A stretch of DNA of 64,000 nucleotides from an uncultured Spirochaetales bacterium (GCA_964641125.1 CAZXMO010000003.1:29756-93755); one strand, 5' to 3'. Numbered from the stretch's first letter, positions 24,439-41,879 are shown. Numbers and translations: made by a program. The notes: generated from the letters alone by a model not told the origin.

Positions 24439-25297
24439 CGTTGCCCCCTCCCCGCGTGAAGATTTCCGACACCGCATCCGCTACCAGCTGCCCGGTTACC
24501 GATGCCCGGTAATCTCCGGTGGCCCTCACATCGTTTATCGGACGGATGTCCTTTCGCACCGTTTCCGATAGAGTCTCCCGTTCGATTTCCTCGCGCCCTC
24601 GGCCGGTCATGTACTCTTCCGCCGAATAAAGCCTGACCGGTACCGGCGCCACGCTTCCCGCGGCAGCCCGGACCCGTGTTATCCTCAAGTCTCCGTCGAG
24701 TACACTCCACACCGCCGTGTTCACCTGGGATATCGCCTGTCCCTCCCGCTTTCCGATCATCCGGAACGCTGAAATCCCTTCGAGGGATTTCTGAGGCAGT
24801 ACGACCGCGGCGAGGAGCTCCCCAGGCTTGCGTACGGTCATCTTCGGACCGGTGAAGAATTCCTCGGCCTTTATCCTCCGTTCTCCGTCTAGGGATCGGA
24901 GAACGAGCTCCGCTTCGAGACAGACAAGTGGAGCCAAGGTGTCTCCGCAGGGAGACCCGTTGCAGATGTTCCCCCCGAGGGTCGCGAGATTTCGGATCTG
25001 CGGGCTCCCTATAGCCTGAGCCCCCTGCCTGAGGCACGCGGGTATCATCGTTCCGTCCGACTGTGCAATTTCGGCAATGGTGACGCAGGCGCCGATAACG
25101 CAGTCCCCGTCAGTGTATCGGATGTCTCTCAGCTCCTCTAATCCGGTGATATCGAGGAGTCCCGCGGGATCTTTGATCCTGTCCGCCCTCTGGACCATCA
25201 GATCGGTACCGCCCGCGATTATCTCGACACCCTTACCCGCCGCGAGCTCGAGGGCCTCCGCGATGTTGTGTGCTCTATAGTATACCGGTTGCTTCAT
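24428..25297 (-). CDS. Mo-hydroxylase FAD-binding subunit (XdhB/CoxM/YgfM-like)
   Basis: 289 aa with IIAGGTDLMV and ATLGGNICNGSP FAD-binding motifs. Confidence 0.8.
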   Translation of the reverse strand: MKQPVYYRAHNIAEALELAAGKGVEIIAGGTDLMVQRADRIKDPAGLLDITGLEELRDIRYTDGDCVIGACVTIAEIAQSDGTMIPACLRQGAQAIGSPQIRNLATLGGNICNGSPCGDTLAPLVCLEAELVLRSLDGERRIKAEEFFTGPKMTVRKPGELLAAVVLPQKSLEGISAFRMIGKREGQAISQVNTAVWSVLDGDLRITRVRAAAGSVAPVPVRLYSAEEYMTGRGREEIERETLSETVRKDIRPINDVRATGDYRASVTGQLVADAVSEIFTRGGGNDEA

Positions 25298-25304: not shown

Positions 25305-25601
25305 TCAGCCGCCTTCCATTCCGGTTGCGATTACATATTCCTCTTCGAACCTGCCTCGCCCCACCGCGGGCGCCTCGAGATGATCGATCCTCTCCAAACC
25401 TCCCGCCTCGTTCCGCCGGAAAACGAGCACTCCGTCGTAGAGATCCCCCTTTTCGAAGAGCCTCAAGCTCCTATACGCCTTCTCCACCTCCCGCAGGGTC
25501 GAGGCTAAGGACATATTTTCCTCCGGGAGCTCTATCACGGTATTCCGTTCTCCCGCGCATGTCCTGATATGACCTACGAACTCGATCCTCACCCGGCTCA
25601 T
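25305..25601 (-). CDS. MoaD/ThiS-family ubiquitin-like small protein (AorD-like)
   Basis: 98 aa running MSRVRIEFVGHI… to …ATGMEGG, with a C-terminal Gly-Gly. The ATG overlaps the AOR stop (ATGA at 25598-25601). The 173-aa track ORF is an N-terminal over-extension into the AOR gene. Confidence 0.7.
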   Translation of the reverse strand: MSRVRIEFVGHIRTCAGERNTVIELPEENMSLASTLREVEKAYRSLRLFEKGDLYDGVLVFRRNEAGGLERIDHLEAPAVGRGRFEEEYVIATGMEGG

Positions 25602-27409
25602 CTCCCTGAAATCTCCAGCTCTCTCAGTTTTTCCCCTCCCGGTACGCCGTCCCGGTCCCATCCGCGGAGACTGTAGTACTCCTCGAGCATTTCCGTAAAT
25701 CGCCCCTTGTCCATAACCGCGGCTTCCGAAACCTCTCCAACGATGGGCTCGAAACACCTCTCGGGAAGCATGTCGTCCTGCTTGGTCAACCCCGCCCGGA
25801 CATTGAACAGCCGCTCCAGATTCCATGTGCGCTCTCCGATTCGGACGAACTCCTCCCAGGACATATCCCGTCCCACCGCCGCCTTCAGATATCTAGGATA
25901 GTAGTCGTGATCGGTGACGAATTCGTGGAACCGGCAGCTTATGAGGGTAAAGATAGCATTGACGGTGTTCTGGATTCCGATGACCATCTCGGCCTTTCCC
26001 TCGTAGCTGTCCATATCGACAGCCCCGATAATCTCGGCACCGATGGGGGCCCTCTTGTGGCAGGCCCCGCGGTTCGATGTGGCAAAGGCGAGTCCGGTTC
26101 CCTTCATCCGCCGGGGCATCCAGGCGGCGAATCCTGAGTTCTTGACCTGCATGGCGAACTCCTTTCCCGCGCCTATTTTTTCCGCGGCTTTAGCGGGCCC
26201 GAGGGCCAGAGTGTCGCCGATACCCTCCCTCTTTCCTATCTTGTGCAAGAGGGCGAGCACGGTCTCCGGTTTTCCGAACTCGAGATCGATACCCGGTTCG
26301 CCGATGAGTCCCCGCTCTCCCATCTCCAGGGCCCAGGCGATGGTTACTCCGACGGTGAGGCTGTCCATACCGTATTCCTCGGTCAGTCTGTTCGCCTCGG
26401 CGAGAACGTCGGGGTCCCGGTTTTCCAGGTTGGACCCCAGGGAGTACATGGTCTCGTACTCGGGCCCCCGGGCCCAGGCGTCTTTTCCGCCGTGATCCTT
26501 GTACCTATGGACCCGCCCGCAGTGAACGGGACAGCTGAAGCAGGAAACCCACTTGGTAGAGAAGTCCTTCTCGTACCGCTGCCCGTCGATGAGATCGGCC
26601 CCCTCGAAAGCCCCTTTTTGATGATTCCGCGTCGGAAGACCGCCCCGGCTCTGGACGAGAGACATCCCCGCTCCGGTCCCGAAACGCGAGAAGAGTCCCA
26701 CGAGATTGTACTCCTCATCGCAGGCGGACATGATGACCGTCATGTTGTCGGCGACGCACCGTGAAAATTCCTTTCGGTCGTAGACGTCGACGGGTACCGA
26801 GCCCCTGATACCGACCCCCTTGATCCTTTTCGATCCGAGGACGGCTCCGGCTCCCCCACGGCCGAAGGTGCGGGTTTCGGAGAATATCGAACCCATGGCC
26901 ACACCCTTTTCTCCGGCCGGGCCGATGGAGAGGGTTCTGTACCCGCTCCCGTAGGTATTTTTTATGTACGTTTCGGTCTCTTCGGTGGAAGTCCCTAAAA
27001 CCGGTGACGCGTCGACGAACCGGACTTCGTCGTTATCGATCAGGATCAGGCTCCACTCGTCGCACCGTCCTTCGAAGATGATTCCGTCGATTCCCGCGAA
27101 CTTGATTTCCGCTCCGAGGAAACCCCCGGCGTAGCAGTTGAGGATGGTCCCCGACAGGGGCGATTTGGTGACGATACACGCCTGAGGGTGCATGGGAGCC
27201 GCGGTCCCGGTAAGAGGACCGACGGTGAGGACGATCTTGTTCGCGGGATCGAGGGGATCGATCCGGGGATCTACTTCGTCGAAGAGGATTTTCGTACCGT
27301 ACCCGATACCGCCGATGTATTCCCGCACTTCCCCGGGCACTTCCCAGGGTGACGCCTTTTTCTCGCCGCACTCGATTCTCAAGATCCGGTCTCTCATACT
27401 GCCCGGCAT
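25598..27409 (-). CDS. Tungsten-type aldehyde:ferredoxin oxidoreductase (AOR family) catalytic subunit
   Basis: N-terminal …ILRIECGEKK…YIGGIGYGTKILFDEV… and the AOR-family central and C-terminal pattern (…CPVHCGR…). Start chosen at ATG 27409, which has an AAGGGGGAA RBS and lies directly after the ferredoxin stop. Confidence 0.8.
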   Translation of the reverse strand: MPGSMRDRILRIECGEKKASPWEVPGEVREYIGGIGYGTKILFDEVDPRIDPLDPANKIVLTVGPLTGTAAPMHPQACIVTKSPLSGTILNCYAGGFLGAEIKFAGIDGIIFEGRCDEWSLILIDNDEVRFVDASPVLGTSTEETETYIKNTYGSGYRTLSIGPAGEKGVAMGSIFSETRTFGRGGAGAVLGSKRIKGVGIRGSVPVDVYDRKEFSRCVADNMTVIMSACDEEYNLVGLFSRFGTGAGMSLVQSRGGLPTRNHQKGAFEGADLIDGQRYEKDFSTKWVSCFSCPVHCGRVHRYKDHGGKDAWARGPEYETMYSLGSNLENRDPDVLAEANRLTEEYGMDSLTVGVTIAWALEMGERGLIGEPGIDLEFGKPETVLALLHKIGKREGIGDTLALGPAKAAEKIGAGKEFAMQVKNSGFAAWMPRRMKGTGLAFATSNRGACHKRAPIGAEIIGAVDMDSYEGKAEMVIGIQNTVNAIFTLISCRFHEFVTDHDYYPRYLKAAVGRDMSWEEFVRIGERTWNLERLFNVRAGLTKQDDMLPERCFEPIVGEVSEAAVMDKGRFTEMLEEYYSLRGWDRDGVPGGEKLRELEISGR

Positions 27410-27410
27410 A

Positions 27411-27812
27411 TCATTCCCCCTTCTTCCGTATCGCCTGAGTCGCGCACTCCGGAACGCACGCCGGCTCTCCGCCGCAGAAATCGCACTTCCACGCCTTTTT
27501 GCCGACAAAGGTTATTGCATCGTAAGGACAGGCGTCCATGCAGGCCCTGCATCCGATACACTCCTCTTCATCGATGACGACGGTCCCCCCGTTTTCCCGG
27601 ATCGCGTCGACGGGACACGATTCTATGCAGGGATGACCTTCGCAGTCGTCGAATCGGCACACCCTGAACACAGGATCCCCCGGCCACGCCCGGTCGACGA
27701 AGATTCGGGACTCTTTCATATCCACCCTTTCCGTCTGAACGATGGAACAGGCAATCATGCATCGCCTGCATTCGGTACAGCGCTTCAGATCTATTTCAAA
27801 ACCCGTTAGCAT
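27411..27812 (-). CDS. Poly-[4Fe-4S] ferredoxin-like electron-transfer subunit (AorA-like)
   Basis: 133 aa with CTECRRCMIAC, CEGHPCIESCP, CIGCRACMDACP and CDFCGG…CVPEC cluster motifs. Confidence 0.8.
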   Translation of the reverse strand: MLTGFEIDLKRCTECRRCMIACSIVQTERVDMKESRIFVDRAWPGDPVFRVCRFDDCEGHPCIESCPVDAIRENGGTVVIDEEECIGCRACMDACPYDAITFVGKKAWKCDFCGGEPACVPECATQAIRKKGE

Positions 27813-27827: not shown

Positions 27828-30398
27828 TTACAGATATCCGCCGTCTTCGAGGACTCGAAGCGCGGATTCGGCGTCCTCCCCGGCAACCATTACCACGGGA
27901 CCGGTACATCCCATCCCGGCTTCGGCATATATTCCCCGTTTCGACAGGAGTGCCGCCGCACTATCGATTTCGAGGACGTCGATCCCTTCTATTTCCTTCC
28001 CCACCGGTTTTTTAGGCGGTCCGGAGGCCGCTGATTCGGGGACCCGCGGTTCCCGAACCTTGCCGATCACGCTTCCCGCGGCAAGAAACCTTCCATAGGT
28101 TTCGGCGACCACCCCGGGCAAGTTTCCCCGGACCATCCGCGCAAGATAAAGGAGGGCCGCGCCGGTTACCTCCGGGGAGGTCGCCCTGGAGATGATCCCC
28201 ACCAAGGATTCCATGCACACCCCGATACCCGGACCGTATCCGGAACCCTTCGTCTCGATAGTTCCGTCGGTCTCCGAAGCCGCGAGGAGCTTCATGATAA
28301 GGTTCCCCGTCAGGCTGTCGCACACCGCGACGTCCACGGTCCCCGCGAGGACATCATTTCCTCTGAGGAGCTCATCGCCGCGGGCGGAACCCGTGAGGTT
28401 GAGGTCGAAACCGTTCGCCGTTGTTTCTTTGAGCCGTCTTAAAGCCGTCTGGGCTCCTTCCAGATTGATAAGCCCTACCTTCGGCCGAACGATTCCGTAC
28501 GTCCTCGCGACACTGACGCCCAAGACGGTGTTCAGGACCAGTGCCTCCACCCGGCTCGTAGAAACCGTTCCGGTTGTCGTGGCGATGAACAGCGGTTTTC
28601 CCTCCGTCTTCGTGTTCACCATCCCCACCGTGGCCACTCCTACGGGAAAAGGATAATGAAAGGTCAGTGCTCCGTCGATCTTCTTTTCCGCGAGGGCTCC
28701 GGACATTTCCCGGTGGGCTTCTTCCGGGGTCCCCTCCTCGGAACCGAAGAAGACTATCTCGAGGTTCGGATCGTCCTCGGCGGCCGATTCTGCCCCCCGT
28801 ATCAGCTCGTCCGTTCCGGCTTCGCTCCCCGGGAGGGTCAGTCCCAGGGCAACCGGGCCGTCCCCGGTATACCCGGAAAAATCGAGGGGTATGCGGAAAC
28901 TTTCCGCCGTCGGCGCCGCGGAGATTGCCGAAGGTCCGGCATCGGAGGATTCGAAGAGTATCGATACCCCGTCGAAGAGATTGGTCATCCTCCCTAAGAA
29001 GAGACTCCCCTTGCCTATGACCATCGCCCGGGTAACAGTCCCCATCTCGGCGTACCGGAGGAGCCAGCCTAAGGCGGGGACCCCCGACGGAATATGCCCC
29101 TGCGTCGGGGCCCATCCCGAGACCCCGTGTTCATTGATAAAATCGGGTATAGAACTCCGCTCTATTTCTTTCTTCATCACCGCCATGGCGGCTATCATCT
29201 TGAGGTTTGCCTCGGTTACGTTTCCCGCGCCGGCGTTCTCGGTGATCTCCGGGTTCTGGAGCTCCGGAGCGTAGAGGTCCACATCGGAAAGACCGAATCC
29301 GCCGGAGGCAAGGGGGTCCGTCACGAGGTCCTGTATGACCGCCTGAGGGGAAGCGCCCGACCCTATCCTGTGCCTTCCCACCACGTCGGTACGGATGACC
29401 AATCCCCGCCCCTCACGTCTCACGAGGACCGCGAAGCCTGCCATGCAGTCCTCGAGGACCGGGAGTCCCTTCTCGATGTGTTTTTTGGAATTCATCCCCA
29501 GCTTAGCGGTGGTCCCCCCGGCGGTGACGACGACCGATTCGAAGATCCCCGACCGTACCAAACCCGCCGCCTGGAGAATACCGTGGACCGGTCCCGCGCA
29601 GAAGGACCTGGTGTCGCTGCCGGTGGCCCGAGAGAGGCCCGAGAGCTCTCCTACGGCCTTCGCGAAGTTGCCTCCTCCCCGCTGGTTGATGTCTCCGCAG
29701 GCCTCCTCGGAGGTCTCGATGATATAGTCGATACTTTCCGGATCCACCGAGTTTCGGTTCAGCAGATCTCTGACCGTGTAGACCGCGGTCGCCTTGGCGG
29801 CTAAGTTTTCGAGAATCGTGTGGGCATGGAGATTGACGTCGTCGGGATGGGCCGACCGGACGCATCCGACCACCTCACCTTTTGATTCTAGCGGCAGCGC
29901 CCCCTCGGCTATCTCCTTCTCGAGGGAACTCTTCTCGATCCCCTTCCTGTGTTTCGGTGTGATAAGCCCGGATAAGACCGGATCTTTCTCGAGGATCGAG
30001 AAAATCAGCTCCGAGAAATCCTGTTCTAAGGCCACGAGATCGAAGACGTCGGCAACCTTCACGAGACTGTAGAGAAGCTCTTCCGACAGGATCGATCCGA
30101 ACCGACCCCGGCATGCACGGCCCTCCATTTCGAATTCGCCGCCGGGTCCCGCCTTTTCGTACCAGGGGCGCGGAGGAAGCTCTCTCGGGTCGATGTTCCC
30201 GATGTAAGCCTGATTCGGAAGATATCCCGCAACGTCTTCGAAGCTTCTCAGCCGGCCGGCGAAGAGCTGTGCGAACTCGGCACCTCCCTCGGTCCGCTTC
30301 GTTTCGGCGTGAGGGGCGCTCCCGTAGGCAGCCGTGAAAAAGGGCGCGTGAAAGAGGCTGTAGGCGGCCGCGGTCAGGACGGGGAAACTATCAGGCAC
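27828..30398 (-). CDS. Glycine/sarcosine/betaine reductase complex component C, with beta (GrdC-like) and alpha (GrdD-like) subunits fused in one 856-aa polypeptide
   Basis: Residues ~1-483 are thiolase/KAS-like GrdC (FPVLTAAAYSLFHAP… to …GKGSLFLGRMTNLFDGVSILFE). A ~30-aa Ala/Ser/Pro linker occupies ~28857-28949. Residues ~515-856 are PlsX-like GrdD (…ALGLTLPGSE… to …AEAGMGCTGPVVMV…). Confidence 0.75.
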   Translation of the reverse strand: MPDSFPVLTAAAYSLFHAPFFTAAYGSAPHAETKRTEGGAEFAQLFAGRLRSFEDVAGYLPNQAYIGNIDPRELPPRPWYEKAGPGGEFEMEGRACRGRFGSILSEELLYSLVKVADVFDLVALEQDFSELIFSILEKDPVLSGLITPKHRKGIEKSSLEKEIAEGALPLESKGEVVGCVRSAHPDDVNLHAHTILENLAAKATAVYTVRDLLNRNSVDPESIDYIIETSEEACGDINQRGGGNFAKAVGELSGLSRATGSDTRSFCAGPVHGILQAAGLVRSGIFESVVVTAGGTTAKLGMNSKKHIEKGLPVLEDCMAGFAVLVRREGRGLVIRTDVVGRHRIGSGASPQAVIQDLVTDPLASGGFGLSDVDLYAPELQNPEITENAGAGNVTEANLKMIAAMAVMKKEIERSSIPDFINEHGVSGWAPTQGHIPSGVPALGWLLRYAEMGTVTRAMVIGKGSLFLGRMTNLFDGVSILFESSDAGPSAISAAPTAESFRIPLDFSGYTGDGPVALGLTLPGSEAGTDELIRGAESAAEDDPNLEIVFFGSEEGTPEEAHREMSGALAEKKIDGALTFHYPFPVGVATVGMVNTKTEGKPLFIATTTGTVSTSRVEALVLNTVLGVSVARTYGIVRPKVGLINLEGAQTALRRLKETTANGFDLNLTGSARGDELLRGNDVLAGTVDVAVCDSLTGNLIMKLLAASETDGTIETKGSGYGPGIGVCMESLVGIISRATSPEVTGAALLYLARMVRGNLPGVVAETYGRFLAAGSVIGKVREPRVPESAASGPPKKPVGKEIEGIDVLEIDSAAALLSKRGIYAEAGMGCTGPVVMVAGEDAESALRVLEDGGYL

Positions 30399-30711
30399 CT
30401 AAAATCTCCTCGAGCTTGGATTCCACCTCGTCGATTTCGAATTCCTTGGAGAACGAGGCTTCCTTTGTCCCGTCCCGGTAGATAAGGATAGACGGAAGAC
30501 CCATCACCTTTTCCCGGATGGCGAGCCTCCGGTTCCCCTGAATGTTGACCTTAGCGAACTCCGCCTTGTCCTCGTATTTTGCGGCGAGGTTCTCGAAATC
30601 CGGCATCATCTCCACGCATTCCTCGCACCCGTCGCTCCAAAAATCGACCACCACGACTCCGTCCGACTCGAGGACCGCCTCGTCGAAGGTGTCTTTATGT
30701 AGTTCTTTCAT
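30391..30711 (-). CDS. trxA: Thioredoxin with atypical active site G-C-E-E-C
   Basis: 106 aa Trx fold: VVVDFWSDGCEECVEM…, cis-Pro GLPSILIY. Confidence 0.8.
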   Translation of the reverse strand: MKELHKDTFDEAVLESDGVVVVDFWSDGCEECVEMMPDFENLAAKYEDKAEFAKVNIQGNRRLAIREKVMGLPSILIYRDGTKEASFSKEFEIDEVESKLEEILGA

Positions 30712-30765: not shown

Positions 30766-31224
30766 CTAGAGAAATTGACCTCGGATGGTCGAAACTTCCC
30801 GGACGATCTCGTCCACATCCAGGACCATCTCCATCATTCCGATGTTGTCCCCATAGACCGATTCGTCCAAATCGTTTTTAATCTCCGGTTCGAGCACGTG
30901 ATATGCGGGGAGTCCCAACTGGACTCCCGTCAATGGACCGGCATAGGCGGGATCGCCGTTTATAACCGTTTCGGCGATGAGGCCGCTTGCCTCAGGGTCG
31001 GCTCCGCCCAAGAGCACCAGGATATTCTCCTTTCCGTGCTCCTCGGCGAGCGCCTTTACCCGCTTCTGGTTCTCCAGGTCCATTGCTCCGGCCGAAGTTC
31101 AAACAAAGCACTCGGTTGCGGAAAAAATGATCTCGACATTCTTTCCCTCGAGACAGGCTTCGATTGCCCCGCCGGGGATTCCGTCTCGATCTCCTAAGAT
31201 AATTATCTTCTTACCGTCGAGCAT
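30766..31224 (-). CDS. grdA: Glycine/sarcosine/betaine reductase selenoprotein A (GrdA), Sec42 encoded by UGA at 31099-31101
   Basis: The track ORF (30766..31083) is only the part after the Sec codon. Upstream in frame: AGGAGG RBS, ATG 31224, [57 protein letters not shown]…. This matches the conserved GrdA CFVUT(A/S)AGAMDLENQ core. Confidence 0.92.
31063..31101 (-). promoter_or_regulatory. grdA Sec UGA plus candidate SECIS stem-loop
   Basis: Hand fold: CUUCGG/CCGG … CUGG/CC-A-GAAG immediately 3' of the UGA. Not verified computationally. Confidence 0.3.
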
Positions 31225-31242: not shown

Positions 31243-32409
31243 TTATGTAATGTCTATAGTCTCCGAACGTTTTCCATCGGTCACCCGAATAAGCTCAGGC
31301 ACACTGTCCACTCCGAAATCCGCGGCAATATTCCTGTAGCGGGATCTATCGAGCTTGACGAGGTTCTTCCCGTCTTCAGCGGCTTTCCGCTCGACAACAG
31401 GAAAGAGCTCGAGGGATTCGGCTATAGGCGGAAAGTAGAAATAGAGATAGAAATCGTTTCCCGCCTCCGAGGCCAGCCGTTCATATCCTTCTATTTCGCT
31501 CAAACCCCTGTCGGCGAAGAACGCCGCCGTCGCCCCGTCGGACGCCGCGGTGACGACCTGCCTCAAGTGTTTTTTTCGCGCGTCTCCCGCGGCGAAGACC
31601 AAGGAACGGCCGGTCCGCATTGCGTCGTCGGTTACGATGTATCCTCCGTCGAGCCCGATGAACCCCTCGGCGAAACCGGTTAGAGGAACGGTCCCCACGA
31701 ACATGAACACACCATCACAGTCCAGCTCCGCGGTGGTCCCGTTCTTCAAATTCTTGAGCCTGACCCGTTCGACGATCTCGTCGCCCTCGATCGCTTCCAG
31801 GGCATGGTTCCACATCCACGTGAGTTTCGGGTTTTCCATCGCATCGCAGGCCATATAGGAGTTACAGTCCAGGGTCCCCTCGTCGTGGACGACGACCATT
31901 ACCACCTCCCTCGCGAAGCGGCTGATGTAGACCGCTTCTTCGACCGCGGTGTCGCCGCTCCCGACGACGACCACCTTGGCGTCCTCGTAGAGCTCGGCGT
32001 CGCAGGTCGCGCAGTAGGAAACCCCCGAGCCGGTGAGCTCCTCTTCACCGGGAATGCCTAAACGTCTCGGTTCGCACCCCGGAGCAAGAATCAAAGCTCT
32101 TCCCTCGAAAAGGGCCCCGGATTTGCACTCCGCCCGGTAGATTCCGTCTGCTTGTCTTACGGTAAGGACCGTATCCTTGACGATCGCGCACCCCATTTCG
32201 AGGGCTTGATCGCGGAAGAGGTTGGTCAGCTCCCTGCCTCCGACTCCGCCGGGAAAACCGGGATAGTTCTCCATCCTCTCGGTGGTCGCCGCCTGCCCCC
32301 CCGGACGCTTCCGGTCGACGATACAGGTACTCCGTTTCGCCCTGGCTGCGTAAATCCCCGCGGTGAGTCCCGCGGTCCCCGCGCCTATGATGAGGATATC
32401 GTAGAGCAT
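31243..32409 (-). CDS. trxB: Thioredoxin reductase (TrxB) with a C-terminal cysteine-less thioredoxin-fold extension
   Basis: ILIIGAGTAGLTAG FAD motif, redox-active CATC, VVVGSGDTAVEEA NADPH motif and FAAGD. The ~75 extra C-terminal residues (…FYLYFYFPPIAESL…DSVPELIRV…) have a Trx-like beta-alpha-beta pattern with PPIA in place of CxxC. Confidence 0.8.
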   Translation of the reverse strand: MLYDILIIGAGTAGLTAGIYAARAKRSTCIVDRKRPGGQAATTERMENYPGFPGGVGGRELTNLFRDQALEMGCAIVKDTVLTVRQADGIYRAECKSGALFEGRALILAPGCEPRRLGIPGEEELTGSGVSYCATCDAELYEDAKVVVVGSGDTAVEEAVYISRFAREVVMVVVHDEGTLDCNSYMACDAMENPKLTWMWNHALEAIEGDEIVERVRLKNLKNGTTAELDCDGVFMFVGTVPLTGFAEGFIGLDGGYIVTDDAMRTGRSLVFAAGDARKKHLRQVVTAASDGATAAFFADRGLSEIEGYERLASEAGNDFYLYFYFPPIAESLELFPVVERKAAEDGKNLVKLDRSRYRNIAADFGVDSVPELIRVTDGKRSETIDIT

Positions 32410-33719
32410 CAGTACGGCACCCCCGCGAGCTTTCCGATTCCGCTCTGATTCGCCCCGCAGTAAAAGGCGGTGGTAACATCGAGGGTCCTCTCGATATCGG
32501 CGGGCTCTGGCTCGCCTCCGGTCTCTTTTCTCAATCTCAGGCAGTCTCCGCCGGCGACCCGGTTTACCTTGGGTATGGTAGTCGGCTTCTCGATCGATCC
32601 GGTGGAGACGACATACCTCGCCTCGGGGACATCGTCGACTAGGAGGATTCCCTCGGTCCCGTCGGGGCCTCCGAATTCGAAGGTGAAGGGGACCGCCTTG
32701 ATTCCCCAGCTCTCACAGGTCTCGAGGGTGAGCATCGCGTCGGTCGCCGCGTTGCCCCCCCCTTCCCAGGAAATGACCACTCCGTCGGCCCCGGTCCTGC
32801 GTACAAGGTTTGCCGCAATGTTCGCCACCCGCTGCTTTTCGAAGTGGCTGTTGTTGTGTCCCCGGTCGAAGACGACCCCGGTAAAGTTACAGCTCTTCCC
32901 GTGGGCCCGAGCGAGCTGCATCACCACGGGGAGGTTCGCCTGGATGTAGGACGGTATCTTGAAACAGGGCCACACGTAGTTGCCGCTGACGATACACCCG
33001 TCCATCACTTCGGTGGGCCCCAGCAAGGTGGGGACGATGTTGCTTACCTCCCGACCGTAGAGGAAGGTGTTCGAATAGGTCCCCTGATTCTGGCACTGGG
33101 TTACGTAGGCGATTTTCGGGAGAGCGGGATCCACCTCGGTGTCGAAATCGAAGAGCTCCGTATGTTCCGGCTCGCGGTCTTTGATAAGCCCTGCTAAATA
33201 ACGTGTACACCTGATACCCGCGGCCCTGACCGATCCGTCGTACTCCACATCGCTGGACCCTTCGACCATCTCCATCTTCAGGATCAGGTTGTAGGTCCCG
33301 GAGAAAGGCGAGTACCCCGCCGCGGGGCCGGCCATGTCCACGATGGCGTCCCGGGGATACAGGAGCGCCGATTTTCCCGCCCAGGGGAGTTCGGCGCACT
33401 CCATGACCGCAAGGTTTGTAATGAGGTGGGTCTTTCCCTCCCCCACGATGGTGGGTGGAGAGAGCTGCCCCGGCATAAAATCCCCGGGGCCCTCTACCTT
33501 AACCCCGACCTGGAGGGTATCGAGGATATGGACGATCCGCGTCGACTCCCCGGGCTTCACGATTTCCAGTTCCAGGCCGGCGATGTTCCCGTTCTCGTCC
33601 GAGTCGAGGAGATATTTTTCGAGCTCTTCCTTATCGACTGTAAGCACCCCGTTCTCGATGGCCGTCTCCGTCCCGAACTCGAGGTCTTTAATGGTAAAAT
33701 ATCCGCGTTCAAGTTTCAT
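32409..33719 (-). CDS. Grd component B GrdE/GrdG/GrdI-family subunit with Tyr at the proprotein cleavage position (GrdI-like)
   Basis: 436 aa, collinear with my recollection of GrdE (…RPGES.RI…KVEGPG…PTEVMDG.I.SGN-x-V…). The GrdE self-cleavage Asn-Cys is Asn247-Tyr248 here (TAC at 32976-32978). Confidence 0.75.
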   Translation of the reverse strand: MKLERGYFTIKDLEFGTETAIENGVLTVDKEELEKYLLDSDENGNIAGLELEIVKPGESTRIVHILDTLQVGVKVEGPGDFMPGQLSPPTIVGEGKTHLITNLAVMECAELPWAGKSALLYPRDAIVDMAGPAAGYSPFSGTYNLILKMEMVEGSSDVEYDGSVRAAGIRCTRYLAGLIKDREPEHTELFDFDTEVDPALPKIAYVTQCQNQGTYSNTFLYGREVSNIVPTLLGPTEVMDGCIVSGNYVWPCFKIPSYIQANLPVVMQLARAHGKSCNFTGVVFDRGHNNSHFEKQRVANIAANLVRRTGADGVVISWEGGGNAATDAMLTLETCESWGIKAVPFTFEFGGPDGTEGILLVDDVPEARYVVSTGSIEKPTTIPKVNRVAGGDCLRLRKETGGEPEPADIERTLDVTTAFYCGANQSGIGKLAGVPY

Positions 33720-33741: not shown

Positions 33742-35076
33742 TCAGGCTAACGCCACATCGAATTCGGTCGGCTCCGAGACCTCGGTGGCGATCGCCTCGA
33801 GGGCGGTTTCCACAAGGCGCTTTCGAAACTCGATTTCCCGGTCCTTCGGCAGATTCGGATCCCCCGCGGGATACGGAATTCCGCCGCCGGTTATAATCCT
33901 GCTTACCCCTACCGACTTAGCGACCGAGGGAATCGCGGTAATAAGGGCCGAAGGGATCCCTATCCGCTCGGCTTCTTTCTGCATCGTTGACACGCAACGG
34001 GTACAGGTTCCTCATGTGGAGGTGAATATCGCGGCGGATACGCTCTTCCGTTTGAGCTCCTCCGCGATACTCGCTCCGAGTTTCTTGCTCATGGCGACGT
34101 TAGTGCCGATTCCGCACAGGGCGAAGTATTCGGCGTGGAGTTTCTTGAATTTCCCCTTCTTTTCCAGGTCCCGGAGGGCGTCCAGCGGGACCACCCGGTC
34201 CGGGTCCTCGTCCACCCAGGAGCTGTCGTAGCCCCCGTGAATCCCCTTGAAATCCACCGCCGGAAGCTCGTCCATCCCCTCGATCGAATAGACCCCGTAG
34301 CTGTCGGAGAAAGCCTGCTTGAGCTTGTCCGGGTTTCCCTTAGGGACCATTCCGCCGCCGGTTACTACCGCAATCGTAGCCGAAGCGAGGTCGGTCAGAG
34401 GCGGCGCGGGGGGCACCTTCTCGAAGGATCTTAAAGGGACCTCGGTCGGCGGGCTCCCGCCGGAGAGCCTCTTCATCAGCATCTCGACGGCCCGCTCGGC
34501 CGCGTTCTTTTCGACCATCTCGTTGTACCGGTATCCCCGGGGGATATAACCGTCGACCAGGGCGTTATCGAGCTTGCCGTTCCGGCCGCACTTGAGGGTG
34601 AGGGCCGCGATCTTGGGCAGGTCCTTCCTCATTCCCGCGGCCGTTTCGGCGCAGGGGACGATATATCCATGCTTTTTGTAGATTTCCACCGCGGGATTTT
34701 CCGGATAGAGCCCGGTGATACAGGGAACGCCTAACTTTTCGCCGCAGAGCTTCATCACCATTCCGCAGGCCAAACCGTATCTGCCTGCATTGAAAGCGGG
34801 CCCCGCGACGACCACGTCGGGTTTCGCCGAACGGATAAGCTCCTCTATCTCGCTCAAGGTCTTTTCCTGCTCCTGATTAATCCGGTTGTCGCCGCACCAG
34901 ATGGTCCTGACGATTACCGCCGAGTCACCGAGGGCCCCTTCTATTCCGATGCCCGGTCCCTTCGGCCCGTCGACGAACTCCAGGGGGGCGTCCCCCTTCT
35001 CTTCGCCGCCTATTCCAGCGAAGAACTGATTGATGTAGTGAACTATTCGTATTTTTTCTCGTATTTTTTCCGCCAC
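33742..35076 (-). CDS. Grd selenoprotein B family (GrdB/GrdF/GrdH), Sec355 encoded by UGA at 34012-34014
   Basis: Track ORFs 34012..35076 and 33742..33993 are in the same frame. Read-through gives …SAAIFTST-U-GTCTRCVSTMQKEAERIGIP…, the conserved UxxCxxC selenoprotein B motif. The N-terminus RIVHYINQFFAGIGGEEK is typical. GTG start at 35076 with a GGGGAGGGG RBS. Confidence 0.9.
33985..34014 (-). promoter_or_regulatory. Selenoprotein B UGA plus candidate SECIS hairpin (CGUUG-CGUGU-CAACG)
   Basis: A 5-bp stem with a 5-nt loop starts 12 nt after the UGA. Hand fold only. Confidence 0.35.
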
Positions 35077-35095: not shown

Positions 35096-36097
35096 TTACC
35101 TATACCCGCCCATGGTCAAGGCGAGAATTGCCTTCTCAGTATGCAGCCTGTTTTCCGCCTCGTCGAATATGATCGATTTGTCCGAATTGAGGACCTCGTC
35201 GGTCACCTCGGTATTACGGCTTATAGGCATGCAGTGCATGACCCGGGCGTCCTTCTTGGCCATATCCATGACCTTCTTGTCAACGATCCAATCCTTTTTA
35301 AGCTCGGCTTTCTTCTCCTGGAACTCGGGGTCCCCCTGGAAATGGGTCTCGAGACCCTTGGCGAAGACCTCGGGAGAAACCCAGGAATATACGTTGATAA
35401 AATCGGCGTCCTTCACCGCCTCGTCGTAACTGCGGACTATCTCCACTTTGCCTCCGGACAACTCGGCGGCATCGTCGGCGAGCTTCTTGACATTCATATC
35501 CGGATCGAACCCTTCCGGACAGGCTATGGAGAGATTGAATCCGAGTTTTCCCGCCATGAGCATTGTCGAGTTGGTGAGTCCCGCGGGGGGATTCGCCGTA
35601 CGGTATCCCCAGCAGAGCGCTACTTTGAGATCCCGGACCTGTCCCTTCTTTTCCTGCATGGTCAACACATCGGCAAAGGCCTGACAAGGATGCTCCACCG
35701 GACAGGATGCGTTGATAACCGGAATTCCCGAATACTCCACCGCCGAGTCGAGGCGGTCCCTTCGGACCGACCGGTACGCGATGCCGTCCAGGTACCTTTC
35801 GAGGGTTTTTATGGTGTCCCGCCAGTCCTCCTCCGCGGCTTCTCCCACCCAGAGCCTGTTCTGGTCGAGCCACAGCATGTGGCCCCCTAACTGCATCATC
35901 GCGGTCTCGAAGCTCACGCTCGTTCTCGTGGAAGGAGTCTCGAAGATACCTCCGAGGCTCTTACCCTCGAGGAGCCGATGCGCTCTTCCCGTCTTGAGCT
36001 CCCTTTTGAGCATGCTCGACACCTCGAGGATAAACTCGATCTGTTCCTTGTCTACGTCGGTAATTCCGGCTATCGATCTTCCCTTCAAATTATCCAT
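35096..36097 (-). CDS. Aspartate/ornithine carbamoyltransferase-superfamily enzyme of non-canonical (unknown) specificity
   Basis: The carbamoyl-phosphate motifs are present but altered: STRTS (not STRTR), HPCQ, HCMP. The OTC-specific DxxxSMG and GDGNN motifs are absent (WGYRTANPPAGLTNS instead). Confidence 0.7.
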   Translation of the reverse strand: MDNLKGRSIAGITDVDKEQIEFILEVSSMLKRELKTGRAHRLLEGKSLGGIFETPSTRTSVSFETAMMQLGGHMLWLDQNRLWVGEAAEEDWRDTIKTLERYLDGIAYRSVRRDRLDSAVEYSGIPVINASCPVEHPCQAFADVLTMQEKKGQVRDLKVALCWGYRTANPPAGLTNSTMLMAGKLGFNLSIACPEGFDPDMNVKKLADDAAELSGGKVEIVRSYDEAVKDADFINVYSWVSPEVFAKGLETHFQGDPEFQEKKAELKKDWIVDKKVMDMAKKDARVMHCMPISRNTEVTDEVLNSDKSIIFDEAENRLHTEKAILALTMGGYR

Positions 36098-37246: not shown

Positions 37247-39004
37247 TTAGGACCTTTCGGACCTGAGTCCTGCTGTTTTTTCCTCGTCGATCTCGAACCG
37301 TTCGGTGTCCTCGAAGACCACCCCGTAGAGCGATTCGGCCCTCTCGACGGTGATTATTCCGTTTCTGACGTCCCTTCGTACCAATTCCGGGTCCCGGTCG
37401 AAGGGGTTCCCCCACCCGCCTCCGCCCGAGGGGTAGCTCGTATAGGTGTCCCCCTTCCCGAGGCGCACCGTTTCCTTCGCGGCGAGCTCCCGCTCCCTAT
37501 CGGTGCCTTCATTGATGTAGGCGAGATTGCACGATCCGGGAAGCCCTCCGAAGAGGCCGTAGGGGGGATGGATTTTTCCGTCCCCGAACATGACGAGGGT
37601 CGGCTCTTCGTCGTATACCCTGATCCGGTATTTGGCCCCGCACCCGCCGCGATACTCTCCCGCCCCGCAGGAATCGGGGGTAAACTCGTTGAACAGTGTC
37701 AGGTGGGGATAGTCCATCTCGTTGGTCTCGATATTCGGAGCGATAAGCCCTCCCAGATCGATGCCGTCGCCTATGTAATGACGGCCGTCCATCCCCTTCA
37801 TCCCCCCGGCACCGCCGAAGCCGTTGAATCCGAACATGACGTAGAACCCCTTACTCCGCGGATCGATACCGGTAATAGTCGGTCCGTTCCACCTGTTCCA
37901 TCCCGCCGGTACCCGGTCGGGAAGGACCAGGGATAGGGCCTGCCAGCAGGCCTCCAATATGGCACAGGCGGTGTCCAGGGTGCACGAGGCGACCGGCGCC
38001 GGAAACCGGGGATTCACCACAGACCCCTCCGGCGCGGTTATACGGATGGGTCTGTAGGCCCCTTCGTTGTGAGGGATATCCGGAGTGGTGACGGTGGTCA
38101 GAAAAGATACGTAAACGCAGGTGGCGGTATTGGCCATCGGCGAGTTGACGAATCCCGTTACCTGGGGATCGGAGCCTTCGAAATCGACGGAGGCCTCGTC
38201 CCCCTTCACCGTAATGCTCACCCGTATCCGGATGGGATCGTCGGAAAATCCGTCCGAATCGAGAAAACTCTCGCCGATGTAGGTCCCGTCGGCAAGCTTC
38301 TCGATCTCCCCCCGCATCCGGCGTTCAGCGTACTGGTGTATCTCTTCGATGGTATCTCGGGTCTTTCGAACCCCATACTTGCCGATCAGATCGATGATCC
38401 GACGCTCCGCCACCCTGCAGGATGCGACCATGGCCTTCAGGTCGACCCATAGGTCGTCGGGCATCCGGGTGTTCAGGCGGATCATGTTGATCACGTCCAT
38501 GATAGGCTCTTCCTTCGCGTAGATCCGGACCGGGGGAATCCGTATTCCCTCGTGGAAGAGCTCAGTCGCCTGAGGGCAGTAGGACCCCGGCTCCATCCCT
38601 CCGACGTCGCCGTGATGGGCACGATTGATGGCGATAAATTGGAGCTCGCCGTCGTAGAAAACCGGCTTCATCACCGTCACGTCCTGGAGGTGGGTACCCC
38701 CGAGGTAGGGATCGTTCAGGACAAAGACATCTCCCGGGTTGATATCGCCGCCGAAATGGCGGCTCACCGCCTTGACCGCCTCCATGGCCGACGCGGTGTG
38801 GCTGGGGACCCCGTCGATCTGAGCGACGATACGGTTGTCCCAGTCGCACAGGGCGCAGGAGAAATCGTGGACCTCGGCGAAGATCGGAGAGATAGAGGTA
38901 TTCACCATGGTAATCCCCATCTCCTGATTTATGGTCAAGAGGCGGTTGTAGATAACCGAAAGGGTTATCGGATCGTGGGCGCCTTCGAACTCTTTCTTTC
39001 TCAT
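37247..39004 (-). CDS. hyuB: Hydantoinase B / oxoprolinase-family subunit (HyuB-like)
   Basis: 585 aa. DPITLSVIYNRLLTINQEMG…HDFSCAL… is typical of the Hydantoinase_B family. ATGA overlap with hyuA. Confidence 0.8.
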   Translation of the reverse strand: MRKKEFEGAHDPITLSVIYNRLLTINQEMGITMVNTSISPIFAEVHDFSCALCDWDNRIVAQIDGVPSHTASAMEAVKAVSRHFGGDINPGDVFVLNDPYLGGTHLQDVTVMKPVFYDGELQFIAINRAHHGDVGGMEPGSYCPQATELFHEGIRIPPVRIYAKEEPIMDVINMIRLNTRMPDDLWVDLKAMVASCRVAERRIIDLIGKYGVRKTRDTIEEIHQYAERRMRGEIEKLADGTYIGESFLDSDGFSDDPIRIRVSITVKGDEASVDFEGSDPQVTGFVNSPMANTATCVYVSFLTTVTTPDIPHNEGAYRPIRITAPEGSVVNPRFPAPVASCTLDTACAILEACWQALSLVLPDRVPAGWNRWNGPTITGIDPRSKGFYVMFGFNGFGGAGGMKGMDGRHYIGDGIDLGGLIAPNIETNEMDYPHLTLFNEFTPDSCGAGEYRGGCGAKYRIRVYDEEPTLVMFGDGKIHPPYGLFGGLPGSCNLAYINEGTDRERELAAKETVRLGKGDTYTSYPSGGGGWGNPFDRDPELVRRDVRNGIITVERAESLYGVVFEDTERFEIDEEKTAGLRSERS

Positions 39005-41070: not shown

Positions 41071-41107
41071 GTACCCCTCCGTTGCTCTATCCTTCGCATA
41101 AATACGC

Positions 41108-41836: not shown

Positions 41837-41851
41837 TCCCTCTTCCATCAG

Positions 41852-41869: not shown

Positions 41870-41879
41870 GCGACGATTT

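Follow-up and report, generated by a model that had tools for sequence, protein, structure and literature searches.

A GrdE-like subunit with tyrosine at the pyruvoyl-forming position belongs to a distinct clade of Grd-type selenoprotein reductases

E' is the non-selenium subunit of a substrate-specific protein B that belongs to a complete Grd-type selenoprotein reductase, encoded in a 64,000-nt stretch of Spirochaetales DNA (the window). It has a tyrosine where the glycine and sarcosine enzymes carry their pyruvoyl-forming cysteine, and it belongs to a clade with the motif SGNYVWP whose members are found in conserved gene neighborhoods in two phyla. We read E' as an unprocessed, pyruvoyl-free B subunit for an X-CH2-COO- substrate made by aldehyde oxidation and place the probability of this reading slightly above one-half (roughly 0.55). 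Grd-type reductases allow anaerobes to gain ATP from reductive C-X cleavage. To our knowledge, their established substrates are only four, glycine, sarcosine, betaine, and fluoroacetate, with proline established for the Prd enzymes; the SGNYVWP proteins form a fifth, well-delimited clade beside the enzymes for these four.

Table 1. Features of the window, in order of position
Feature	Position	Strand	Support and remarks
Sec toolkit: selD, tRNA-Sec (6737-6825), selA, selB	5600-9965	plus	
PreA/UacX-like flavin-FeS reductase	19060-20238	minus	Pfam, NCBIfam
SsnA/TRZ-ATZ-type amidohydrolase	20231-21664	minus	Pfam, NCBIfam
Xdh FAD, FeS, and Mo subunits	21657-25297	minus	Pfam, NCBIfam
Aldehyde:ferredoxin oxidoreductase (AOR)	25598-27812	minus	PF02730, PF01314
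Small YgfS-like 4Fe-4S ferredoxin ORF	about 27411-27812	minus	ygfS/ygfT tblastn match
Fused GrdC-GrdD, 856 aa, protein C (forms acetyl phosphate)	27828-30398	minus	NF040746, NF040747
Thioredoxin	30391-30711	minus	PF00085
GrdA (selenoprotein A)	30766-31224	minus	NF040748, 161 bits (cutoff 130); C-F-V-U, UGA 31099-31101
Thioredoxin reductase, 388 aa	31243-32409	minus	TIGR01292, 319 bits
E' (GrdE-like subunit), SGNYVWP clade, 436 aa	32409-33719	minus	PF09338, 393 bits
E' Cys252 codon (TGT)	32964-32966	minus	codon mapping
E' Tyr248 codon (TAC)	32976-32978	minus	column of the GrdE/GrdG Asn-Cys autocleavage site
E' Asn247 codon (AAC)	32979-32981	minus	column of the GrdE/GrdG Asn-Cys autocleavage site
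E' Cys242 codon (TGT)	32994-32996	minus	codon mapping
B' (selenoprotein partner), 444 aa	33742-35076	minus	PF07355, 444 bits; UGA 34012-34014 in TST-U-GTCTRC
OTC-family carbamoyltransferase	35096-36097	minus	TIGR00658, 272 (cutoff 281)
Opine dehydrogenase family enzyme, 378 aa	36090-37226	minus	PF02317
HyuB, ATP-dependent hydantoinase/oxoprolinase	37247-39004	minus	Pfam Hydantoinase_B
HyuA, ATP-dependent hydantoinase/oxoprolinase	39001-41163	minus	Pfam Hydantoinase_A
GntR/FCD regulator, head of operon	41108-41911	minus	Pfam; conserved in Spirochaete loci
Divergent operon: class III (omega) aminotransferase, carbamate kinase, XdhC	41970-45153	plus	Pfam
Second OTC copy	49110-50048		canonical

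The Asn247-Tyr248 pair lies in the translated segment PTEVMDGCIVSGNYVWPCFKIPSY. Alignment with independently anchored GrdE, GrdG, and GrdI references places Tyr248 in the column of the cleavage Cys, so that SGN-Y-VWP in E' stands opposite SGN-C-V in GrdE and GrdG. Specifically, the site reads SGN-C-VSAC in the GrdE of Acetoanaerobium noterae, taken from a canonical trxB-trxA-grdE-grdA-grdB-grdCD operon, SGN-C-VAPC in the annotated GrdG of Peptoclostridium acidaminophilum, and SGS-F-MPCS in the GrdI of Enterococcus gilvus pCR1A, a reference chosen for its adjoining PGAP-named grdH and BCCT transporter genes. Coordinates, codons, and alignment thus all agree with the original prediction that Tyr takes the place of the pyruvoyl-forming Cys, and its statement that GrdI lacks that Cys is borne out by the Ser-Phe of the reference. 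Because this residue is absent, the further suggestion of an unprocessed subunit with no need for a Schiff base appears reasonable. The AF2 model of E' has a pLDDT of 91.9; a PDB sequence search with E' gives no match at E <= 1, and a Foldseek comparison of the model with the PDB gives none at E <= 0.001, with TM-scores below 0.2.

The same residues are found throughout the clade. Ser245, Asn247, Tyr248, and Trp250 are invariant in 118 of 118 full-length E' homologues, which come from independent assemblies in two phyla and share 50 to 99% identity. Tyr248 is therefore a clade signature, not a one-off. The clade is represented in at least 91 GTDB species, gut and oral bacteria among them; cultured carriers include Treponema putidum, Muricomes intestini, Bariatricus massiliensis, Faecalicatena contorta, Alkaliphilus peptidifermentans, and Tepidimicrobium xylanilyticum. 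It is further marked by insertions and motifs of its own (ELPW..LLYPRD, RGHN, WEGGGNAATD, and FEFGGxDGTEGILLVDD), and it separates from GrdE/GrdG and GrdI with a bootstrap of 96/100 in a tree built by neighbor joining only (numpy implementation, 100 bootstraps, representatives biased toward relatives of the query). Tyr at this site proved less exceptional than had been implied at the outset: among 130 diverse representatives of the GrdE family, a sample biased toward relatives of E', it is the commonest state (Asn-Tyr in 34, Asp-Tyr in 10, and others), and Asn-Cys is found in only 8. A literature search for characterization of the SGNYVWP clade or of GrdE-like radiations returned only the FarE paper and general work on Grd enzymes.

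The partner subunit, B', shares 43 to 44% identity with GrdB/GrdF and 40% with GrdH when its in-frame UGA is read through, and the alignment shows that the reading frame stays conserved past this codon. It retains U-x-x-C-x-x-C, has motifs of its own (e.g., GIGTNV and KQAF), and matches neither the GrdB nor the GrdF motifs of Nobu et al. The hairpin that follows the UGA, examined as a SECIS candidate, has a folding energy no better than that of shuffled sequences (z = 0.04), so the selenocysteine assignment rests on frame conservation and on the U-x-x-C-x-x-C motif. The other components expected of a Grd-type complex are all present, namely a CxxU GrdA, GrdC and GrdD, and Trx with TrxB, and this complete grd set is the sole one within the window. 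GrdA, GrdC, and GrdD all score above their NCBIfam cutoffs, unlike E' and B'; the fused GrdCD scores 624 bits with NF040746 (residues 6 to 484) and 370 bits with NF040747 (residues 515 to 856). The selenocysteine toolkit includes a selD whose product itself contains selenocysteine (SAG-U-AAK).

When judged by the bit score cutoffs of the NCBIfam equivalog and exception models, neither subunit can be assigned to a named class. E' scores 269.7 bits with the GrdG model (NF040793; cutoff, 780), 154.9 with FarE (NF053623; cutoff, 675), and 50.1 with PrdA (TIGR04480; cutoff, 700), and B' scores 341.7 with GrdB (TIGR01917; cutoff, 602.2), 379.4 with GrdF (NF040794; cutoff, 800), and 318.2 with GrdH (NF040795; cutoff, 775). 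An assignment to GrdE, the glycine reductase proprotein, is also contradicted by the Asn-Tyr pair and the separate clade, one to GrdG by the missing cleavage Cys, and one to FarE by the CTRC motif kept in B' and the absence of a radical SAM gene from the operon; the distance from the PrdA cutoff leaves no place for E' among the D-proline reductases. E' resembles GrdI in its lack of a cleavage Cys, with Tyr here and Phe in the reference, but the original label "GrdI-like" does not stand as a statement of kinship: E' is 29.8% identical to the GrdI reference against 35 to 38% to GrdE/GrdG, GrdI falls in a separate SGSFMP clade, and the partner is not GrdH. The suggestion of betaine as the substrate fares no better, given the GrdH score of B' and the lack of a BCCT or Opu transporter among the window ORFs scanned; the reference GrdIH locus has a BCCT gene.

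Within the window, the reductase genes adjoin those for several enzymes of nitrogen compound metabolism. The operon-encoded carbamoyltransferase has STRTS in place of STRTR and a 12-aa insertion in place of DxxxSMG; with its ornithine-binding motif lost, it is predicted to have a specificity other than ornithine. The closest solved structure to the opine dehydrogenase is N-(1-D-carboxyethyl)-L-norvaline dehydrogenase (1BG6; E = 2.5e-38), HyuA matches 5-oxoprolinase (PDB 6YRA) and N-methylhydantoinase (7HK5), the carbamate kinase passes the arcC model (TIGR00746, 371; cutoff, 358), and the omega-aminotransferase resembles GABA and acetylornithine aminotransferases.

Neighborhoods of the clade were counted at 12 Spirochaete and 44 Bacillota loci. 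The Spirochaete loci encode GrdA and GrdCD in 12/12 cases, Xdh in 11/12, AOR in 9/12, and HyuB, the opine dehydrogenase, and the OTC-like protein in 10 to 11 of 12. One Spirochaete lineage (L024, L032) has the operon without Hyu, OTC, and Xdh genes, which shows that those genes are not obligatory partners. In Bacillota, an ALDH or AOR gene is found in 41 of the 44 loci, usually immediately upstream of B', and the B'E' pair lies apart from GrdA/CD in 34. This ALDH belongs to the BADH/aminoaldehyde group (470 to 476 bits with TIGR01804, below the BADH cutoffs of 668.6 and 593), has a PuuR-like regulator alongside, and is often joined by an Fe-ADH; a Tdh-like Zn-ADH and a DhnA/LsrF-type enzyme are found in 28/44 loci. 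Transporters associated with the clade are of the APC or Bmp-ABC type, not BCCT or Opu. In three Bacillota metagenome-assembled genomes, Xdh, SsnA-like (59 to 61% identical), and UacX-like genes adjoin ALDH-B'-E'-GrdA-GrdCD. Bacillota contexts also hold PTS, SIS, and aldolase genes beside the ALDH. N-epsilon-carboxymethyl-lysine, Amadori/Heyns compounds, glycolate, and sulfoacetate have been considered as candidate substrates for these contexts.

Since the autocleavage position lacks a Cys and no Cys is invariant among the 118 homologues, E' is most likely an intact, unprocessed chain of about 48 kDa that carries no pyruvoyl, as reported for GrdI. Together with its selenocysteine-containing partner B', it would bind an X-CH2-COO- substrate whose X group is unable to form an iminium with a carbonyl cofactor, or has no need of one. 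The selenolate might then attack C-alpha directly and displace X, handing the carboxymethyl group to GrdA, from which the fused GrdCD would make acetyl phosphate, with electrons supplied by TrxB and Trx. The substrate would probably come from oxidation of an N-substituted acetaldehyde, by AOR in this Spirochaete and by the betaine/aminoaldehyde-type ALDH in its Bacillota relatives. At the weakest point of the proposal, the Spirochaete aldehyde would most plausibly come from opening of a purine-type heterocyclic ring, whose products would be processed by the adjacent Xdh, flavin reductase, amidohydrolase, ATP-hydantoinase, carbamoyltransferase/carbamate kinase, omega-aminotransferase, and opine dehydrogenase. 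Speculatively, X might be of the amide or ureido type, which would make an N-substituted glycine such as N-carbamoylglycine a candidate substrate. The more specific claim that the clade is a pyruvoyl-independent selenoreductase for such non-iminium-forming glycines, serving in Spirochaetes as the terminal step of an undescribed purine/N-heterocycle branch, is doubtful. If it is true, N-carbamoylglycine, for instance, would yield urea and acetyl phosphate, the terminal step of anaerobic purine/N-heterocycle degradation in these Spirochaetes would conserve energy, the cost of ring opening by the ATP-hydantoinase would be repaid via carbamoyl phosphate and acetyl phosphate, and a new Stickland-type electron acceptor would be at hand, also in human gut Lachnospiraceae and oral treponemes.

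The opine dehydrogenase speaks against the proposal: it suggests secondary-amine chemistry, for which a pyruvoyl enzyme might be expected by analogy with sarcosine and GrdG. The clade neighborhoods could equally well deliver plain glycine, and a glycine reductase after all, with an alternative protein B that lacks the E-derived pyruvoyl, is an unlikely reading. In such an enzyme, NH3 would be displaced directly from protonated glycine or the carbonyl would be located elsewhere, and PMC10838667 treats the protein B carbonyl as not entirely settled. The operon is complete and the only grd set in the window, classical anaerobic purine fermentation ends in glycine according to the introduction of bioRxiv 10.1101/2025.05.19.654654, AOR or the aminoaldehyde-type ALDH could turn aminoacetaldehyde into glycine, and the Zn-ADH and DhnA/LsrF-type enzymes of many Bacillota loci could in principle take threonine to glycine. 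However, Asn-Cys is kept in all characterized glycine and sarcosine enzymes, E' falls outside the GrdE/GrdG clade, B' is far below the GrdB cutoff and differs in the GrdB-defining motifs of Nobu et al., and the frequent separation of B'E' from GrdA/CD in Bacillota resembles that of an accessory substrate module. A functional equivalent of GrdI, reducing betaine or another quaternary or tertiary methylamine bound by cation-pi contacts with Tyr248 and Trp250, is improbable. The aromatic residue of GrdI, the similarity of the Bacillota ALDH to betaine-aldehyde dehydrogenase, and its pairing with an Fe-ADH, as for choline to betaine, are set against the divergence from GrdI, the GrdH and BADH cutoffs, the transporter types, and the hydantoinase, carbamoyltransferase, and Xdh genes of the window, which are unrelated to methylamine metabolism.

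Processing to a pyruvoyl enzyme at another site, either Gly241-Cys242 or, on the model of pyruvoyl enzymes that derive the group from serine, Ser245, appears very improbable. Cys242 is kept in 114/118 clade members and is Ala in GrdE, GrdG, and GrdI, which indicates a clade-specific gain near the old site, and Ser245 is invariant. Yet Cys242 is Ala in the other four members, one of which (P0050) sits within a complete Spirochaete operon, Ser245 also occurs in GrdE, GrdG, and GrdI, none of which is processed there, and GrdI is reported in the literature on Cys-less subunits to be unprocessed (PMC10838667). The original prediction had reserved Cys242 or Cys252 as alternative sites; with Cys252 in only 51/118 homologues and no Cys invariant, this reservation is largely retired, although the near-constancy of Cys242 leaves a small probability of processing at Gly241-Cys242 in most members. 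Far less likely than the doubtful claim of a selenoreductase for N-substituted glycines is an extreme in which the invariant Asn-Tyr would give rise to a carbonyl or quinone cofactor, made from the tyrosine, in place of pyruvoyl. A degenerate, inactive paralogue, or a sequencing or assembly artifact, would have in its favor nothing beyond the loss of the catalytic Cys and is effectively refuted by the conservation of the motif across species and independent assemblies, to which the intact selenocysteine codon of B', the conserved operon synteny, and the high-confidence predicted fold of E' can be added.

The diagnostic motif, the co-evolving selenoprotein partner, and the reproducible neighborhoods make the substrate of the clade directly testable. 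Since Cys-less, Tyr-bearing homologues are the majority among the diverse representatives, pyruvoyl-independent chemistry may be the norm in the GrdE family and not the exception, and automated annotations of genes for such homologues as "glycine reductase" are probably wrong. The physical proximity of the reductase genes to a purine-type catabolic cluster suggests an unrecognized route from N-heterocycles to acetyl phosphate, which may bear on uric acid turnover in anoxic habitats.

Among characterized systems, GrdE/GrdB and GrdG/GrdF are the nearest relatives of E'/B' by sequence and share the TrxB, Trx, GrdA, and GrdCD partners and U-x-x-C-x-x-C, but GrdE and GrdG have Asn-Cys with a second Cys at +4 and autoprocess to pyruvoyl enzymes. 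The betaine reductase GrdI/GrdH of P. acidaminophilum resembles E'/B' in lacking the cleavage Cys, with an aromatic residue at the site, and in having a selenocysteine-containing GrdB-family partner that feeds GrdA and GrdCD; it differs in SGS-F-MP versus SGN-Y-VWP, in overall sequence, in its BCCT transporter, and in metabolic context. In the fluoroacetate reductase FarE/FarB of Cloacibacillus (PMC10838667), a GrdE homologue without processing cysteines, for which absence of processing was likewise inferred, acts on a substrate that has a leaving group on acetate and needs no Schiff base, and shares the common GrdA/GrdC system. FarB lacks the CxxC retained in B', E' is far from the FarE cutoff, and the window has no neighboring gene for the radical SAM protein FarC.

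The composition of the flanking cluster parallels that of the reductive uric acid (2,8-dioxopurine) pathway of E. coli and Clostridioides difficile (bioRxiv 10.1101/2025.05.19.654654), with an Xdh-type Mo enzyme and FAD subunit, a PydA/UacX-type reductase, an SsnA-type amidohydrolase, a hydantoinase, a carbamoyltransferase, a carbamate kinase, XdhC, and MocA in common. Orthology with the E. coli uricolytic genes was rejected on identities of 26 to 33% (SsnA, 26%; XdhD, 28%; XdhA, 33%) and on an SsnA score of 200.5 (TIGR03314/IPR017700; cutoff, 455.5), so the putative purine link is an analogy of composition; carbamate kinase stands at 44% identity. The uric acid cluster has a D-hydantoinase, YgeX, and YgeY, whereas the window has the ATP-dependent HyuAB type, and neither ORF scans nor comparison with the E. 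coli genes found YgeX or YgeY equivalents in it; their place is taken by the opine dehydrogenase, omega-aminotransferase, AOR, and Grd-type reductase. A Grd link goes unmentioned in both purine-degradation papers compared, the uric acid study among them. A pathway-level precedent for leading a hydantoin ring to a selenium-dependent Grd-type reductase is the creatinine fermentation of Tissierella creatinophila, in which ring opening of 1-methylhydantoin gives an N-carbamoyl amino acid, with sarcosine reductase acting on the product as the last step (PMC5364220). A creatinine-to-sarcosine pathway, prompted by HyuAB and the carbamoyl-cleaving enzyme, was set aside for the window: the Cys is retained in sarcosine enzymes, and the genes for Xdh and the flavin reductase would be out of place in such a pathway. 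T. creatinophila uses an N-carbamoylsarcosine amidase and a pyruvoyl-type GrdG/GrdF, whereas the window encodes a phosphorolytic carbamoyltransferase and the Cys-less E'.

The GrdE-family subunit E' is encoded by an ORF with an ATG start and comprises 436 residues, being a full-length member of the Pfam family Gly_reductase (PF09338; 393 bits). It was aligned with references whose identity was independently supported: the Acetoanaerobium noterae GrdE encoded in the canonical trxB-trxA-grdE-grdA-grdB-grdC-grdD operon, GrdG from the Peptoclostridium acidaminophilum megaplasmid (annotated grdG, followed by grdF), and GrdI from Enterococcus gilvus pCR1A, where a BCCT transporter and a grdH so named by PGAP adjoin it. 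The alignment is unambiguous around the cleavage site, which reads SGN-C-VSAC in GrdE and in a Photobacterium homologue, SGN-C-VAPC in GrdG, SGS-F-MPCS in GrdI, and SGN-Y-VWPC in E'. A codon-by-codon map places Asn247 (AAC) and Tyr248 (TAC) inside PTEVMDGCIVSGNYVWPCFKIPSY. The map and the alignment bear out the original prediction that Tyr replaces the pyruvoyl-forming Cys; Cys242 and Cys252 lie where it put them, and its premise that GrdI lacks the cleavage Cys agrees with the literature (PMC10838667) and with the GrdI reference. The Cys on which both the N-to-S acyl shift and the formation of a pyruvoyl group depend is missing from E'.

A search of a 5.8-billion-protein collection returned 120 relatives of E', 118 of them full-length, with identities of 72 to 99% in Spirochaetota and ~50 to 55% in Bacillota. 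All 118 read SGNYVWP, the motif that gives this clade its name, and Ser245, Asn247, Tyr248, and Trp250 are invariant. Tyr248 is a clade signature rather than an accident. Cys252 is kept in 51 of the 118 proteins and replaced by Ala, Trp, Val, or Leu elsewhere; Cys242 is kept in 114, with Ala in the other four, including one from a complete Spirochaete operon (P0050). No Cys is invariant anywhere in the protein, so the earlier concern about a nearby processing Cys is largely removed, although Gly241-Cys242 is still an improbable candidate site in most members. The peptides VSGNYVWP and LLVDDVPEA, used as probes against GTDB species representatives, find the clade in 91 species, with many Spirochaetota metagenome-assembled genomes (MAGs) and numerous Bacillota. 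Cultured carriers include Treponema putidum ATCC 700334, Muricomes intestini DSM 29489, Bariatricus massiliensis, Faecalicatena contorta, Lutispora saccharofermentans, and Alkaliphilus peptidifermentans DSM 18978; Tepidimicrobium xylanilyticum and Clostridium swellfunianum are found among the protein matches to E'.

E' scores below the NCBIfam cutoffs for GrdG (270 bits against 780), FarE (155 against 675), and PrdA (50 against 700). Searched exhaustively with HMMER, 1.84 billion cluster representatives yield 990 family members at E <= 1e-3. In a neighbour-joining tree built from 421 columns of 141 sequences with 100 bootstraps, the SGNYVWP clade has a support of 96/100 and stands apart from the GrdE/GrdG clade (72/100), whose members all have Asn-Cys, and from the GrdI clade, whose motif is SGSFMP. 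Over the aligned columns, E' is 37.7% identical to GrdE, 35.3% to GrdG, and 29.8% to GrdI. With its own clade and the lower identity to GrdI, E' thus shares with GrdI just the absence of the Cys and is no relative of it. The Tyr is also less singular than assumed. Among 130 diverse family representatives (P0121-P0270), a sample skewed toward relatives of E', it is the commonest residue at the site (Asn-Tyr in 34, Asp-Tyr in 10, His-Tyr in 6, and Gly-Tyr in 5); Asn-Phe is found in 6, Tyr, Phe, His, or Trp together account for most of the sample, and the canonical Asn-Cys is rare (8/130). Even allowing for the skew, these sequences show a large uncharacterised radiation of GrdE homologues that lack the Cys and bear an aromatic residue, and much of what is annotated in the family as "glycine reductase" probably does not depend on a pyruvoyl group. 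The AlphaFold2 model of E' (m467d3e7bf721) has a pLDDT of 91.9 and a pTM of 0.92; neither a sequence search nor Foldseek with the model found a solved relative in the PDB (best TM-score, ~0.2).

The selenoprotein partner B', encoded directly upstream of E', contains an in-frame UGA within TST-U-GTCTRC, the catalytic U-x-x-C-x-x-C. It also falls below the NCBIfam cutoffs, those of GrdF (379 bits against 800), GrdB (342 against 602), and GrdH (318 against 775), and is 43 to 44% identical to GrdB and GrdF and 40% to GrdH. The motifs by which Nobu et al. tell GrdB from GrdF fit neither way, as B' reads IHGGYDS...RVVPLD and GIGTNV. Its identity to the partners of other clade members is 48 to 57% in Bacillota and 73 to 77% in Spirochaetes, so B' co-evolves with E'. 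The clade and its partner differ from all four characterised specificities and constitute a fifth, well-defined, and widespread protein B clade of Grd-type selenoreductases; the "glycine reductase" annotation of its members is probably wrong.

The genes downstream of E' encode, in order, TrxB, GrdA (with C-F-V-U), thioredoxin, and a GrdC-GrdD fusion; GrdA, GrdC, and GrdD each score above their own NCBIfam cutoffs. The fusion is a single ORF of 856 residues, with counterparts of 849 to 850 residues in two Spirochaete relatives (L009 and L010), whereas GrdC and GrdD are separate genes in the Bacillota loci and reference organisms. TrxB (388 residues) matches TIGR01292 over residues 3 to 300 and has a C-terminal extension of ~85 residues; its length is similar in relatives (391 residues in L009). 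A complete selenocysteine toolkit adjoins the locus, including a selD with its own selenocysteine (SAG-U-AAK), and SelA and SelB are neighbours of the B'E' operon in four other loci as well (L024, L032, L033, and L086). With these genes, the machinery leading from the carboxymethyl-selenoether to acetyl phosphate is complete and canonical, the unusual part being only the substrate-specific protein B.

Features of the window in and around the B'E' operon
Feature	Position	Strand
Selenocysteine toolkit (selD, tRNA-Sec, selA, selB)	5600-9965	+
In-frame UGA of selD	~5682	+
tRNA-Sec	6737-6825	+
selA	6829-8190	+
selB	8190-9965	+
Bmp/PnrA-Zn-ADH-FGGY-DhnA module	11109-19014	-
Xdh (FAD, FeS, Mo), SsnA/TRZ-like amidohydrolase, PreA/UacX-like reductase	19060-25297	-
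GrdC-GrdD fusion	27828-30398	-
TrxB	31243-32409	-
E'	32409-33719	-
Tyr248 codon of E'	32976-32978	-
Asn247 codon of E'	32979-32981	-
B'	33742-35076	-
In-frame UGA of B'	34012-34014	-
Operon carbamoyltransferase	35096-36097	-
XdhC	44362-45153	+
MobA/MocA-like gene	47768-48337	-
Second OTC-family gene	49110-50048	-
Serine hydroxymethyltransferase homologue	56887-58377	-

The minus-strand array of the window runs GntR, the ATP-dependent hydantoinase subunits HyuA and HyuB, opine dehydrogenase, ornithine transcarbamylase (OTC)-like carbamoyltransferase, B', E', TrxB, GrdA, Trx, GrdCD, ferredoxin, aldehyde:ferredoxin oxidoreductase (AOR), xanthine dehydrogenase-like Xdh (FAD, FeS, and Mo subunits), SsnA/TRZ-type amidohydrolase, PreA/UacX-like flavin-FeS reductase, and a Bmp-type ABC transporter. 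The genes for a class III aminotransferase, carbamate kinase, and XdhC form a divergent operon. The array is conserved across Spirochaete relatives: among the 12 loci with enough flank, GrdA/CD is found in all 12, Xdh in 11, HyuB, opine dehydrogenase, and the OTC-like protein in 10 to 11, and AOR in 9. HyuA resembles ATP-dependent 5-oxoprolinase and N-methylhydantoinase, and the opine dehydrogenase is related over its full length to Arthrobacter N-(1-D-carboxyethyl)-L-norvaline dehydrogenase (1BG6; E = 2.5e-38). The operon carbamoyltransferase has lost the ornithine-binding DxxxSMG motif, with a 12-residue insertion in its place, and has STRTS for STRTR, suggesting specificity for a new carbamoyl acceptor or donor; the second OTC-family gene has every canonical OTC motif. 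In another Spirochaete lineage (L024 and L032), the operon (SelA, SelB, SDR, GntR, B', E', TrxB, GrdA, Trx, GrdC, GrdD, Bmp-ABC, and Zn-ADH) is without Hyu, OTC, and Xdh genes; these genes are therefore feeders specific to particular lineages, arranged around a core that is conserved.

Several further genes lie in or near these loci. Beside the cluster is a module of a Bmp/PnrA-type ABC transporter, Tdh-like Zn-ADH, FGGY kinase, and DhnA-type class I aldolase, which comes straight after GrdD in L032 (13174-18390). L009 encodes a transketolase-like TPP enzyme of 674 residues (6640-8664) between the carbamoyltransferase and B', hinting at a 2-oxo-acid or ketol step that feeds the reductase. The serine hydroxymethyltransferase homologue of the window (496 residues) matches the Pfam SHMT domain best over residues 166 to 439 only; its N-terminal region may be unusual or its start mis-called.

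The Bacillota context is unlike the Spirochaete one yet equally reproducible. An aldehyde-oxidising enzyme is found in 41 of 44 loci (ALDH in 37, AOR in 4), with the ALDH mostly immediately 5' of B', and is the most constant companion of the reductase. These ALDHs are 60 to 76% identical to the reference ALDH of locus L001 and are nearest to betaine-aldehyde and aminoaldehyde dehydrogenases (470 to 476 bits, under the equivalog cutoff); their regulator resembles PuuR. An APC permease is present in 33/44 loci, a Tdh-like Zn-ADH with a DhnA-type class I aldolase in 28/44, and GrdA/CD nearby in just 10/44. Three Bacillota MAGs (L033, L036, and L047) encode, in this order, UacX-like, SsnA-like (59 to 61% identical to that of the window), Xdh, ALDH, regulator, B', E', TrxB, Trx, GrdA, GrdC, and GrdD, and two other loci have HyuA (71 to 73% identical) a few kilobases away, so the heterocycle module recurs with the reductase across phyla.

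Lacking the Cys, E' is probably unprocessed, as are GrdI and FarE. Activity-based probes carrying a hydrazine react with the pyruvoyl group of GrdE and of PrdA in C. difficile (PMC9908766). B'E' would bind an X-CH2-COO- substrate, produced from X-CH2-CHO by AOR or ALDH, and X would be displaced when the selenolate attacks directly, the mechanism proposed for betaine and fluoroacetate; the carboxymethyl group would go to GrdA, and GrdCD would turn it into acetyl phosphate. The identity of X is speculative. One scheme that fits the accessory enzymes of the window has HyuAB opening a hydantoin, the carbamoyltransferase removing the terminal ureido group in the form of carbamoyl phosphate (with ATP via carbamate kinase), the omega-aminotransferase turning the freed amine into an aldehyde, and decarboxylation plus AOR giving N-carbamoylglycine, which would be reduced to urea and acetyl phosphate. 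Since a nitrogen of the amide type is unable to form a Schiff base, such a substrate would account for the dispensability of the pyruvoyl group. The opine dehydrogenase has no place in this scheme and might point instead to N-carboxyalkyl (secondary amine) intermediates.

Other readings concern the substrate or the processing. A pyruvoyl-independent glycine reductase is unlikely, even though the neighbourhoods might deliver plain glycine, either from aminoacetaldehyde by the aldehyde-oxidising enzymes or from threonine via the Tdh-like and LsrF-like enzymes. Betaine, originally named as one example of a substrate that forms no Schiff base, is improbable, as the phylogeny, the GrdH score of B', and the transporters speak against a betaine reductase; what stands of that interpretation is the probable lack of processing. 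Processing of E' at an alternative site, for which Cys242 would be the candidate in most members, is improbable. A dead paralogue or an artefact is practically ruled out.

The E' reductase is embedded here in a purine-type catabolic cluster. In reductive uric acid degradation (Li et al., bioRxiv 10.1101/2025.05.19.654654), XdhD-YgfM forms isoxanthine, YgfK or the PydA-like UacX, together with SsnA, forms ureidomethyl-hydantoin, a hydantoinase forms 2,3-diureidopropionate, YgeW (with phosphate) or UacY forms albizziin, YgeY forms diaminopropionate, and YgeX forms pyruvate. Eight of these roles are matched in the window: Xdh with its FAD subunit, UacX-like reductase, SsnA-like amidohydrolase, hydantoinase, carbamoyltransferase, carbamate kinase, XdhC, and MocA; counterparts of YgeX and YgeY were not found there. 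The likeness is one of composition and not of orthology to the E. coli cluster, given the low identity (SsnA, 26%; XdhD, 28%; XdhA, 33%; carbamate kinase, 44%; heterocycle module overall, 26 to 34%) and an SsnA-like score under the TIGR03314 cutoff. A Grd-type variant is mentioned in neither of the two purine papers, including that of Li et al. At the pathway level, there is a precedent for a hydantoin as the source of a Grd-type reductase substrate in Tissierella creatinophila, where creatinine is converted via methylhydantoin and N-carbamoylsarcosine to sarcosine, the substrate of sarcosine reductase (PMC5364220).
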